DNA from: Verrucomicrobiota bacterium
GTDB lineage: Bacteria > Verrucomicrobiota > Verrucomicrobiia > Limisphaerales > Palsa-1400
DNA: 64,000 nucleotides
Assembly: GCA_049510745.1 (NCBI GenBank)
Contig: JBEKYR010000008.1
Span: forward strand, 192,001-256,000
Direction of reading: 5' to 3'
Positions 27,761 through 39,304 of the stretch are shown one piece after another. The notes under the pieces were generated by a model. It ran no database searches. It was not told the origin of the DNA and was given only the letters and a program-made list of their open reading frames with translations. Within the stretch, counting starts at the first letter, position 1, and the number at the start of each line of letters is the position of its first letter. The translations under genes and the position numbers were made by a program.

Positions 27761-27920
27761 TGAAGTTCCGAATGTTCCCAAGGGGGCCGGAGAAGCGCAA
27801 GGTTGAAAGGGTCGAAATATCAGGGTAGGGGCCGCTTTGGTTTGCTTTGCCTGATCTTGGGTTGTGGGCTACTTTGAATTTCCGCTGGCACGTTGACCGC
27901 AAAAGCGGCACGTTGCCAGC

Positions 27921-28052
27921 ATGATTAAACCGAAGAAGAAGCGCAAGGGAGATGCGGCCCAAGTCGCTTAAAGCGTCATGCAGGAGGTTATCCGAATGAG
28001 CAATAAGCCCATTGTCGCCCCGCCCGCCACAAAGCCCAAGAAAAAGCGGTAA
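27921..28052 (+). pseudogene. Small basic ORF with internal TAA
   Basis: MIKPKKKRKGDAAQVA*SVMQEVIRMSNKPIVAPPATKPKKKR*, starting ~40 bp inside the left IR. Confidence 0.4.
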
Positions 28053-28099
28053 TTTTCGGGCTTTCTTCATGGGCGGAATTGGGGCTTTATGCGGTGATT

Positions 28100-28699
28100 A
28101 TGCCGAAACCGCAACCGAAGCGCTCCAAGGTCAAAAAGGACACCCCAACGCGTAGGCTTAAATTTGCTGGTCAAATCAGGGAGTGGGCCAAAAAAGATAT
28201 TGTGACCGCAACATTTTTCGCGCAAAGAGGGAGAATATTCAGCGACATGGAATTGGCATTGGTGTGTTATTACTTCATCTGGGATAAATTTAAAGTCCTG
28301 CAATCCGGTCAAAATCCAATCGAACAAGGAATTTTGGGGGAACTATGGACAAAGGAGGTGTCGGACGCATACTCAAAAAACATTTCGCAACTTTTTGCCC
28401 AAGATCGAAGAAAACTATGCGGGATATTCTTGAATGCAGTGGAAAACCGCGATGCTGGAAAGATTTTAGAGATTGCCAAGGCGGTCAAATTCTTAAAGAC
28501 ATTCAAAGAGAATAGCGACCATTGCCGGGCTGGCATCTTGGGTTTGAAAAGTGTACTGGATAAAAATAACCGAAAAATGCCAATCAGCGAACTGGCGCGG
28601 GCGGTCAAATGGCCTGCAAGTGACGCAAAGCACGGATTTTGGAGACTTCGCAGAATCGCCAAGGAATTGAATTTCCCGCTGGAGCCTCAACACAAATAA
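28100..28699 (+). CDS. Hypothetical basic protein with possible C-terminal HTH
   Basis: 199-aa AT-rich ORF; MPISELARAVKW helix pattern. Confidence 0.6.
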   Translation: MPKPQPKRSKVKKDTPTRRLKFAGQIREWAKKDIVTATFFAQRGRIFSDMELALVCYYFIWDKFKVLQSGQNPIEQGILGELWTKEVSDAYSKNISQLFAQDRRKLCGIFLNAVENRDAGKILEIAKAVKFLKTFKENSDHCRAGILGLKSVLDKNNRKMPISELARAVKWPASDAKHGFWRLRRIAKELNFPLEPQHK

Positions 28700-28996
28700 G
28701 GCCGTGCAAACCGCGATAATGTGTTGAGTGTGTTTCAACTTCATAGGGTAAATTCCCCTCACGGAACTGCAATTCCGCAATAGGCGCATGTAATTTAGAA
28801 ACCGCTTTGTGTCCAATGCCCGCGCCGGGTGTTTTGCAGTTGGATGCGAGGCGGTTTTCGTTTTTGCGATTATGAAATTAAAACGGTCGCGCTTGCGTAG
28901 CCATTAAGGGCGGATACGTGGAGCGCGGACAAATGGGCACGGCCCGCTTGGTGATTCTTTGGCAAGACAACCAAGCGGGCCGCAAACGTAATGAAT

Positions 28997-29092
28997 GGGG
29001 CCAGTCCCCTTTGGCTGGACGCCGTAACGCGGGTTTAGACCGCTAGGGGCATTGTGTAATGCAATGGGGTTCGACTCCCACTGGTTCCACCA
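28997..29092 (+). ncRNA. tRNA-like RNA, 9/3 (allo-tRNA-like) fold, encoded CCA
   Basis: GGGGCCAGT pairs with ACTGGTTCC (9 bp) followed by A-CCA; T-arm GGG-TTCGACT-CCC; long arm CATTGT/GCAATG; hairpin GCGG-GTTTAGA-CCGC. Confidence 0.75.
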
Positions 29093-29248
29093 TTTACGCG
29101 GATACAGAACCACAGTCTGCCGCTGAAAGCAAGACTTTTCTGGCCCATTTCGACTGCGACAGGCCAGATTTGACGATTGTCGCATCAATTGTTTTGCGCT
29201 CGCCAGCCGTGAACCGGAGTTTTATGGCGTGCAAACAGGACAACATAC

Positions 29249-29797
29249 CTAGTCCGCCATCTCGCCGGTAAAAAACTCCACTATTTGTTCTTTTGTTCGC
29301 GGCTTGGTGCCGCGCTTCTGCACTACTTCGTGGTAAACTAAATAGAATCCAGTCCAGACGTCAGATTCATCGCCCTTTTGCTTTCTTATCACCTGGTCAA
29401 AACACGTCTCCCAGTAATATTGAATGTAAATCGAGTAGTCGCAATAAATCCTACTTTTCTGCATTTCATGGTCTTCAAGCGCGGAGCCAAGATCATTAAA
29501 GAAATCAATTATATCCTCGCTTATGTCGGCTGGTTTATCCAGGTTTTCCAAGATTATTTTTGCGGCTTTTTGGCGCTTTGGTTCAAGCCGTTCCCAGCGT
29601 TCCTCGAAGTAATTGGCCCTTTCTTCGGCTTTTTCACCCCACTTGAACCGAGATATGAGAACGCAAAGGATTGCGCTTATGATAAACCATTTGCCTGCAA
29701 TCGCGTGGTCTTGTGATGCGATGGCGGCAAAAAGCGGGGCACCAACTAACACAACCAGCCCCTCCGCTCGAATCCATCTGTGGAGCCAAGGAAACAT
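29249..29797 (-). CDS. Hypothetical protein with two N-terminal TM segments (DUF4760-like C-terminus)
   Basis: Two hydrophobic helices followed by an IIDFFNDLG motif; AT-rich. Confidence 0.6.
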   Translation of the reverse strand: MFPWLHRWIRAEGLVVLVGAPLFAAIASQDHAIAGKWFIISAILCVLISRFKWGEKAEERANYFEERWERLEPKRQKAAKIILENLDKPADISEDIIDFFNDLGSALEDHEMQKSRIYCDYSIYIQYYWETCFDQVIRKQKGDESDVWTGFYLVYHEVVQKRGTKPRTKEQIVEFFTGEMAD

Positions 29798-29920
29798 TTG
29801 GCCAGATTGACCCTAAATCCGATGTTGAAAAGGCATTTTTTGAGCCTGTTTTGCTTTCACATCCCGAATTTATACCACTACTATTCAGAAAATACGTGCT
29901 TCATGTTGAATATCAGAGGT

Positions 29921-29958
29921 TTACAAATCGCGCCGCAGAGCGGCGGCGCGATTTGTAA
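29921..29958. repeat. Perfect 16-bp-arm inverted repeat
   Basis: TTACAAATCGCGCCGC-AGAGCG-GCGGCGCGATTTGTAA. Confidence 0.9.
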
Positions 29959-30093
29959 GATCTCTCAATTTCTCCGTTGACAGGTTCTTGGCTGAAAACG
30001 CGGCGGGCGCGATTACAAGCTTCAAAGTAGCCCACTACCTGGCCTTGACTGGGCTTGACCGGACAAGGAGGAAGGCAGGATGAATTCAGCGGT

Positions 30094-37361: not shown

Positions 37362-39304
<1,943 letters not shown>

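Follow-up and report, generated by a model that had tools for sequence, protein, structure and literature searches.

Within the window, i.e., the whole 64,000-nucleotide stretch of DNA analysed here, from a peat bacterium of the Verrucomicrobiota, the gene for a six-helix tRNA-like RNA occupies positions 28997..29092 of the plus strand, as identified by fold statistics, a descriptor scan and covariation. This 96-nt unit is real and evolutionarily conserved. Its 9-bp acceptor stem, with the 5′ strand at 28997..29005 and the partner at 29080-29088, contains G1-C72, G2-C71, G3·U70 and a second wobble pair, G4·U, and is followed by the discriminator A73 (29089) and an encoded CCA (29090-29092). 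An extra helix, termed helix X, pairs CCCCT at 29006..29010 with AGGGG at 29045-29049 and encloses two 4-bp hairpins: a D-like one whose loop carries an invariant GG (29012..29024), and an anticodon-like one with the 7-nt loop GUUUAGA (29029..29043), in which the central UUA lies at 29035-29037. A long variable-type arm (29050..29066) and a T arm of 3 bp with the canonical loop TTCGACT (29067..29079) complete the fold. Rechecking the sequence, we found all the features of the unit listed in the first-pass annotation of this DNA exactly where it had placed them.

The fold combines a 9/3 acceptor/T branch and a long variable arm with the extra helix around the D-like and anticodon-like hairpins. 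Four helices, namely the acceptor (9 bp), helix X, the variable arm and the T arm (3 bp), come together with almost no linkers in a four-way junction, and helix X closes a second, three-way junction with the D-like hairpin and the anticodon-like hairpin of 4 bp and a 7-nt loop. The variable arm has 5-6 bp. The D-like stem has 4 bp, and its loop is 5 nt long here and varies over 3-5 nt among members; the anticodon-like loop measures 6 nt in one member. Geometric reasoning suggests that helix X may stand in for the D stem in the stack of the anticodon branch, giving about 10 layers (4 bp + 1 + 5 bp), and that the D-like hairpin may fold back onto the T loop.

Folding of 28997-29092 gave a minimum free energy of −44.6 kcal/mol (z −3.14), which none of 200 shuffles reached. 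A descriptor composed of a 9-bp acceptor, a 3-bp T stem and a T loop matched this locus alone in the 5.6-Mb genome and nothing in five dinucleotide-shuffled genomes, and the unit is single-copy in the host genome. The standard searches that the annotation had proposed, ARAGORN and the Rfam tRNA and tmRNA models, both missed the unit. ARAGORN called no tRNA at 28997-29092, and Rfam gave nothing at gathering score for the unit or, likewise, for 11 relatives; the best sub-threshold match of the unit was to tmRNA over a 13-nt T-loop stretch (10.5 bits). Judged as a canonical tRNA, the unit has no 7/5 branch, no Y32/R37 loop and no match to RF00005.

The gene sits inside a 2,180-bp low-GC stretch bounded by 19-bp inverted repeats, the left at 27860..27878 (plus strand) and the right at 30021..30039 (minus strand), which are complementary at 18 of 19 positions and are terminal repeats of the IS1-family type. 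IS1 ends begin GGnnnTG. The flanking 8-bp target-site duplications (27852..27859 and 30040..30047) agree at six of eight positions; among eight repeat pairs examined, the duplication is a perfect 8 bp in five and imperfect in three, including this copy. Contigs from two of four other sequencing runs diverge exactly at 27860. The same 19-bp repeat occurs in 19 of 30 family-level genomes and at three further places in the host genome: a cassette with different cargo including a transposase remnant (C2:26127-27202), another with different cargo and a perfect 8-bp duplication (C7:~106990-108350), and a third place at C18:16742. In one genome (G601) there are 30 terminal-repeat copies, mostly at contig ends, and the element is probably active and high-copy there. 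Near the right end of our cassette lies a perfect 16-bp inverted repeat (29921-29958), and abutting that end is a short repeat (30040-30058), possibly a preferred target, of which further copies lie next to the C2 cassette and at other places in the genome.

Besides the RNA gene, the cassette carries a small basic ORF of 43 codons that is conserved inside the left end (27921..28052, plus strand), a passenger ORF of about 200 aa with one 63% homologue and no known family (28079..28699, plus strand), and a 182-aa passenger ORF with an N-terminal hydrophobic stretch (29249..29797, minus strand). Neither passenger ORF matched a Pfam, NCBIfam or PADLOC family above cut-off or an Atlas entry at 0.9 or higher. 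Codon 17 of the small ORF (27969-27971) is TAA here and Tyr (TAC or TAT) in all five other elements, with the frame intact behind it; an independent sequencing run showed no difference across this site. No transposase is encoded within 27860-30039, and this copy is thus a non-autonomous derivative. In 15 of 20 member loci a related transposase lies within the fetched flank, in tandem (eight), divergent (four) or convergent (three) orientation. The relatives' transposases matched Pfam DDE_Tnp_IS1 above cut-off in three of five cases, and NCBIfam IS1 was their best match, but below cut-off, in four of four. The proposal that the gene had spread on a transposable cassette is borne out by these IS1-type ends, duplications and linked transposases. 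In 11 of 31 clustered loci (L193:1778-2071, minus strand, and 10 others), the transposase has as its neighbour a conserved protein of about 100 aa that matches no Pfam family.

Family and covariation of the six-helix RNA

At least 20 distinct members were found in Verrucomicrobiota, Acidobacteriota, one actinomycete and soil or peat metagenomes. BLAST of 30 family-level genomes yielded two full-length relatives (L075 and L076), and a covariance model search a third (L099). A pattern fixing the acceptor and T arm alone picked out 16 metagenome loci, all 16 of them members (74-121 bits). A genome-wide pattern with free acceptor and loop matched 44 loci, three of which were members, namely the two Verrucomicrobiota records already known and an actinomycete MAG (L131); the other 41 proved to be tmRNA ends, a tRNA-Sec or chance matches. 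Five members came from a model search of 150 Acidobacteriota genomes, and two further ones (L234 and L238), which stand outside the final alignment, from a loop-anchored pattern that hit 10 viral-contig loci. No member was found by BLAST in 401 phylum-level and 201 order-level genomes (ordinary tRNA ends or chance matches alone), by model R1 in 150 order-level genomes (weak matches of at most 35 bits, those inspected being ordinary tRNA or tmRNA), in the plasmid and phage collections searched, in 149 further genomes of the actinomycete's order, in 150 genomes of G628's phylum (one weak match, to another tRNA type), or with five patterns in viral contigs (0, 0, 4 non-members, 0 and 0).

The final alignment comprises 20 distinct rows, omitting the identical copies L103, L105, L107, L110, L111, L113, L138 and L152, and the identity to this copy ranges from 90% down to 53%. 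In this alignment, which was fitted to the structure and whose rows are related so that counts are not independent, 97.7% of the cells in all six helices are paired and double changes occur in 22 of 30 pairs; none of 500 shuffles scored as high, and slid alignments were 41-50% paired. Double changes affect all four pairs of the D-like hairpin, three of four in the anticodon-like hairpin and four of five in the variable arm. RNAalifold recovered the identical six-helix fold from a 15-row alignment. Homologues with compensatory changes, the absence of which was to count against the gene, thus exist. In members with an Ala-type acceptor (defined below), C-G and U-A exchange at two of the five pairs of helix X, at one pair in a ratio of 7 to 7. 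Helix X has a near-zero single-sequence probability in the aligned register of the six Ser-type members of the alignment, and a clean 5-bp helix X is present in L234, also of Ser type. By sequence comparison, helix X appears well supported in the Ala-type branch; what had been offered as a mere possibility is real and marks out that branch.

Folding of this copy alone gives good support to the acceptor, helix X (pair probability 0.97), the variable arm and the T arm. The D-like and UUA hairpins, which the annotation had described from the same sequence, then have a pair probability of about 0, with a rod-like structure more stable by 5.9 kcal/mol; they are upheld by covariation in the relatives and do not form in this copy on its own. 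The anticodon hairpin is favoured by folding in 13 of 20 members. We rejected the rod as a family structure, given that 70% of its cells are paired, one of its 13 pairs shows a double change and 424 of 500 shuffles scored as high. Also rejected was the reading as a tmRNA or tRNA-Ala remnant at an attachment site: the closest host match is to tRNA-Ala at 23 of 27 nt, the gene sits mid-cassette and its own 5′ half covaries. A degenerate tRNA or tmRNA 3′ end, looked for by Rfam and host-genome comparison, is thereby ruled out.

This copy in particular might be a decaying remnant of a functional family member that is inactive now, which would be compatible with any of the readings below. The missing transposase, the mismatches in one repeat and in the duplication, the small ORF's stop codon, an antisense −10 weaker than in any other member, the predicted rod misfold and the G4·U69 pair all point that way. 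We nevertheless regard decay as rather unlikely, since all 30 consensus pairs are intact here, the copy scores 102 bits, its variable arm carries compensatory changes relative to the closest relatives, and G4·U69 is common to four of the 20 members.

Loop, acceptor marks and control elements

The centre of the anticodon-like loop reads UUA in 18 of 20 rows and CUA in one, is broken in one, and holds down to 53% identity. A36 and A38 are invariant in the 20 rows. Position 37 holds C (15 rows) or G (five rows) and in no row A, and 16 rows have G at position 32. For comparison, tRNA calls in the host have a pyrimidine at 32 in 50 of 53 cases and a purine at 37 in 52 of 53. Modification of A37 strengthens decoding of codons beginning with U. 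The doubt about actual decoding voiced in the first-pass annotation is thus fair, given G32 in most members and C or G at 37 in all. Model matches are biased toward the conserved loop; a loop-blind descriptor applied to 28 of the 30 Acidobacteriota transposase loci recovered the five RNAs that the Acidobacteriota model search had found, all with YUA-CA, and no helix-X RNA with another loop.

The acceptor is of Ala type (G3·U70 and A73) in 14 of 20 members and of Ser type (A3-U70 and G73) in six; G3·U70 was preset by the search pattern for 10 of the 14, while L075, L076 and L099 were found without that pattern. AlaRS and SerRS both ignore the anticodon. The alanine marks and the UUA triplet singled out in this copy are therefore predominantly conserved in the family. 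The D-loop GG is present in all 20 members and a pyrimidine at −1 in 17. The encoded CCA, present here as annotated, is no family trait, as only five of 20 members have it.

The surrounding sequence contains several candidate control elements. Some 130 nt upstream of the RNA gene is a long hairpin followed by a U tract, resembling a sense-strand terminator (28797..28866, plus strand), with similar ones in L075 and L081. A leader hairpin with an internal loop follows in a short-ORF region (28888..28927, plus strand), and similar ones were seen by eye elsewhere. Just 5′ of the RNA gene lies a conserved long hairpin that resembles an antisense terminator (28940..28983, minus strand) and is weak in this copy; of 22 loci, 16 have a U tract flanking it on the antisense side, and none has one on the sense side. 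Past the 3′ end, an antisense promoter-like site (29104..29132, minus strand) comprises a −35 at 29132-29127, a TG and a weak −10, with a predicted start at about 29097.

In 20 of 22 loci a −35-like hexamer occurs on the opposite strand, 40-49 nt past the discriminator, accompanied by an extended −10 TG in 14 of 22, as against 23 of 4,400 shuffles and two of 76 host tRNA calls; the looser −35 motif used was derived from these same sequences, and the hexamer alone is also found on the sense strand in nine of 22 loci. By a plain sigma70 score, all six non-Verrucomicrobial members, five of which played no part in spotting the motif, reach 10-11 of 14 (shuffle p ≤0.017), compared with four of 76 host tRNA calls at 10 or more. 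Inspection by eye revealed the site in two more members from viral contigs as well. Across the 14 Ala-type members its position is fixed, and it is weak against the sigma70 consensus (score 6-10, p 0.04-0.85), this copy having the weakest (6 of 14, p 0.85), and a generic promoter scan did not list the site of this copy. From the antisense promoter and the 5′ hairpin terminator together, an antisense RNA of about 150 nt across the whole gene is predicted. Kissing of its 5′ end with the loop was considered and rejected, as the matching TTTAC trailer is absent from the six Ser-type members.

These features could also be read as a tRNA shape that serves merely as a processing or stability signal for RNase P/Z, or as a by-product of a locus whose true product is the antisense RNA. 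The elbow marks (D-loop GG and T loop) are kept, and the rarity of an encoded CCA and the frequent pyrimidine at −1 would suit such a role. It leaves the YUA loop and the Ala/Ser identity sets unexplained, however; the module occurs in three orientations to the transposase, and G·U pairs are kept on the sense strand alone. We therefore consider this reading very improbable.

The tRNA slot and comparison with known systems

Starting from the transposases, we surveyed 30 loci, fetched from 45 places in the family and representing 29 elements, and found a tRNA-like gene in 12 (10 by descriptor, one by ARAGORN and one by eye). Three are of the six-helix type and nine have 7/5 bodies. Among the latter, seven of nine combine G3·U70 with A73, and seven of nine have an NUA loop centre (UUA in three, CUA in two and GUA in two, read by eye, two of them with weak stems). 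The five stop-type genes carry C or G at 37, and the two with GUA a normal A37. Such slot RNAs lie in family genomes at L164:1166-1241, L169, L170, L174, L175, L181, L188, L163 and L173, and two further small Ala-type RNAs stand beside Acidobacteriota transposases (L207 and L213); they include Ala-type ochre or amber tRNAs, minimal Ala-type RNAs, and tRNAs that combine a Tyr anticodon with Ala or Ser identity. That unrelated bodies share one recipe argues for selection on charging and loop. The same upstream hairpin precedes other odd tRNA-like genes at L080, L077 and L081, where no transposase match was found in the fetched flank; their kinds are an Asp anticodon on a Leu-like body, an Asn tRNA with a degenerate T loop, and a minimal hairpin form. 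Near Acidobacteriota IS1-type transposases there are also tRNA-Ser calls with a short variable region (L198, L224 and L225), with U73 in the two inspected.

One use of such a gene would be as a mild suppressor that serves the element itself, reading nonsense codons in transposon or cargo genes as a switch or a buffer against decay, without any toxin. The TAA in the small ORF, which replaces a Tyr codon within an intact frame, would fit, as would transposases interrupted by TAG at two family loci (L205 and L108/L111). We looked for a conserved in-frame transposase stop in the member and slot loci and found none: most adjoining transposases are intact, with 276-281 aa and mixed terminal stops, and internal stops fall at differing places, also in loci without a detected tRNA. 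Since single nonsense codons are expected in decaying elements, service to the element seems an improbable explanation.

The published RNAs closest to this family are the allo-tRNAs, to which the first-pass annotation had compared the unit. The comparison is apt; the published set, however, already holds species with a 9/3 fold, G3:U70, A73 and UUA (PMC5389517). Like the present RNA, 9/3 allo-tRNAs have a 9-bp acceptor, a 3-bp T stem and a long variable arm (Mukai et al. 2017, PMC5389517; PMC7609411); Ser or Ala identity is unlinked from the anticodon, UUA included (supplement row 647: 9/3, UUA, A73; PMC5389517); and they occur in soil bacteria with a loose link to transposon and toxin-antitoxin loci (PMC5389517). 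Those with G3:U70 direct Ala into amber positions in E. coli, missense allo-tRNAs arrest growth, and transposon-linked allo-tRNA(UAU) variants showed no translation in E. coli (PMC5389517).

Several differences emerged from the table rows and motif searches on which our comparison with PMC5389517 rests. Our family has an enclosing helix, and with it a four-way plus a three-way junction, whereas the rows compared have none; its D and anticodon stems are 4 bp, whereas theirs are long; and it has G32 with C or G at 37, whereas A37 is found in 10 of 10 of their UUA-anticodon rows compared. Five family motifs were absent from the sequence tables of that paper. The specific IS1-type carrier and the predicted antisense promoter also set our family apart. 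Measured against the 9/3 allo-tRNA class, the unit shares the 12-bp acceptor branch, the long variable arm, and Ser/Ala identity with a non-cognate anticodon. It departs from the class in three structural marks, having neither a tRNA-Sec-like D arm (long stem, tetraloop), nor an anticodon stem longer than canonical (4 bp here), nor a single cloverleaf junction with the D arm 0-3 nt from the acceptor (helix X encloses the arms). The unit was thus filed as a variant and not as a member. It is an architectural variant of the published 9/3 allo-tRNAs, new in its additional helix, its atypical loop and its transposon module.

The allo-tRNA(UAU) group and the 'E-loop' polycistronic tRNAs resemble our family in their irregular junctions, transposon genes and doubtful translation, but have another anticodon and are described as five-stem junctions or as having an extra loop before the D arm (PMC5389517); they are set apart here by that text description, and overlap in junction type may exist. 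Among toxin-antitoxin systems, the type VIII pairs SdsR-RyeA and CreTA unite an RNA toxin with an RNA antitoxin, and SdsR-RyeA overlap on opposite strands, as predicted here (TADB 3.0, PMC10767807). Neither toxin is a tRNA in that description (PMC10767807), whereas the toxicity and the antisense RNA of our family are predictions. The carrier shares short terminal repeats, 8-bp duplications and passenger genes with IS1-family elements and their non-autonomous derivatives, and the relatives' DDE transposases match IS1 models best; it differs in the recurring tRNA slot, in transposases that score under the NCBIfam IS1 cut-off and in having none in this copy. The G1-C72, G2-C71, G3·U70 and A73 acceptor is also that of tRNA-Ala and the tmRNA tRNA-like domain, but our gene is 9/3 instead of 7/5 and has no tag frame, and the host has intact tmRNA and tRNA-Ala genes of its own, which differ from it in sequence. 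Among the published titles and abstracts searched, with subscription literature mostly outside this scope, we found no description of a helix-X fold, of a tRNA slot in IS1 elements, or of a tRNA toxin paired with an antisense antitoxin.

Proposed function

Taken together, we propose, with a probability of about 0.4, that the gene encodes a non-canonical tRNA carried by IS1-type transposons as a self-contained module: a charged, weak suppressor of UAA and UAG that is silenced by a cis-antisense RNA and acts as a conditional RNA toxin. In this model, the host would trim the tRNA and add CCA where none is encoded. A synthetase blind to the anticodon, AlaRS here and SerRS for the distant members, would then charge it, and EF-Tu would deliver it to UAA and UAG codons. 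With no member having A at position 37 and most having G at 32, suppression is expected to be weak. Transcription from the convergent promoter would stop at the upstream hairpin, giving an RNA of about 150 nt that is complementary to the tRNA over its full length and would hold it silent. Once the antisense RNA lapses, be it through loss of the element, transcription shut-off or phage infection, stop-codon read-through might poison the cell, and the module could thus stabilise the element or abort infection in the manner of an RNA-toxin/antisense-antitoxin pair. What suggests this model from comparison of sequences is the covariation, the YUA loop that is kept while the acceptor switches between Ala and Ser, the recurring recipe on unrelated bodies, and the antisense site. 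Of the roles named in the annotation, an antitoxin role of the tRNA is the least favoured, as the layout makes the tRNA the repressed partner and the antisense RNA the repressor.

Against decoding, G32 and C37 break the anticodon-loop rule, the stem has just 4 bp, and ribosome fit is a guess because the enclosing helix was not found among the published tRNAs compared. The RNA might instead be a charged tRNA mimic that does not decode: its acceptor end would bind the synthetase and EF-Tu, and its loop would be a recognition surface and no anticodon, whether as bait for an anticodon nuclease or tRNA-targeting toxin, as a release-factor competitor, or by pairing with another RNA. The usual anticodon loop of tRNA-Tyr (CUGUAAA in L163 and L169) is complementary to UUUACA, and the extra helix, like the loop and the short stem, is unlike decoding tRNAs. 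C37-A38 recurs on unrelated bodies, which suggests selection beyond the triplet; moreover, the slot is in some cases filled by minimal alanine-type RNAs that lack a clear 7-nt loop (L181 and L188), and non-translating allo-tRNAs have been published (PMC5389517). Yet position 34 is only ever U or C, the two stop-reading options, with G confined to the normal Tyr loop; C or G at 37 fits neither a mimic of Tyr codons, for which C or U is expected, nor a single pairing partner; and a nuclease decoy needs no aminoacylation marks, although Ala or Ser marks are always retained. A non-decoding mimic is accordingly conceivable but, in our judgement, unlikely.

If the weak-suppressor model is extended to the whole lineage, these IS1-type transposons would carry interchangeable stop-reading tRNAs that act as RNA toxins and are each kept silent by a dedicated cis-antisense RNA. 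They would then represent a toxin-antitoxin class whose toxin is a suppressor tRNA. One of its architectures, with six helices, would be usable by ribosomes despite having a Watson-Crick helix in place of the tertiary core. We put forward this wider claim tentatively and at low odds.

The role of allo-tRNAs has been a question since 2017, and the present family offers a testable answer with a defined carrier (IS1-type transposons), layout (tRNA, antisense promoter and terminator) and target (UAA and UAG). In the host, TAA or TAG ends 40% of 1,919 long ORFs. Should decoding prove true, the six-helix fold would widen the notion of a working tRNA and provide a new scaffold for Ala/Ser suppressors, one overlooked by standard tRNA finders. 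Should toxicity prove true, a tRNA would serve as the toxin of an RNA-RNA toxin-antitoxin pair, and mobile DNA would have a route to alter stop-codon reading in soil bacteria. Even with no decoding, this would still be a conserved non-coding RNA family absent from Rfam.

Other unusual tRNA genes were seen in the host and elsewhere. The host genome has tRNA arrays on contigs C73-C75, one tRNA of which has a UUA anticodon (C73:2821-2897), and a duplicated 3′ half of tRNA-Ala(CGC) at C6:20325-20351, probably an island attachment scar. In the window, ARAGORN called a tRNA-Phe at 37730-37821, within an ORF that by eye is of the ATP synthase beta type; the call is probably false. Three viral contigs (L021, L022 and L024) carry short tmRNA-like RNAs that apparently consist of the tRNA-like domain alone, and a genome of G628's phylum contains a cluster of Ser-type long-arm tRNAs with extended acceptors (L233:1293-1790).
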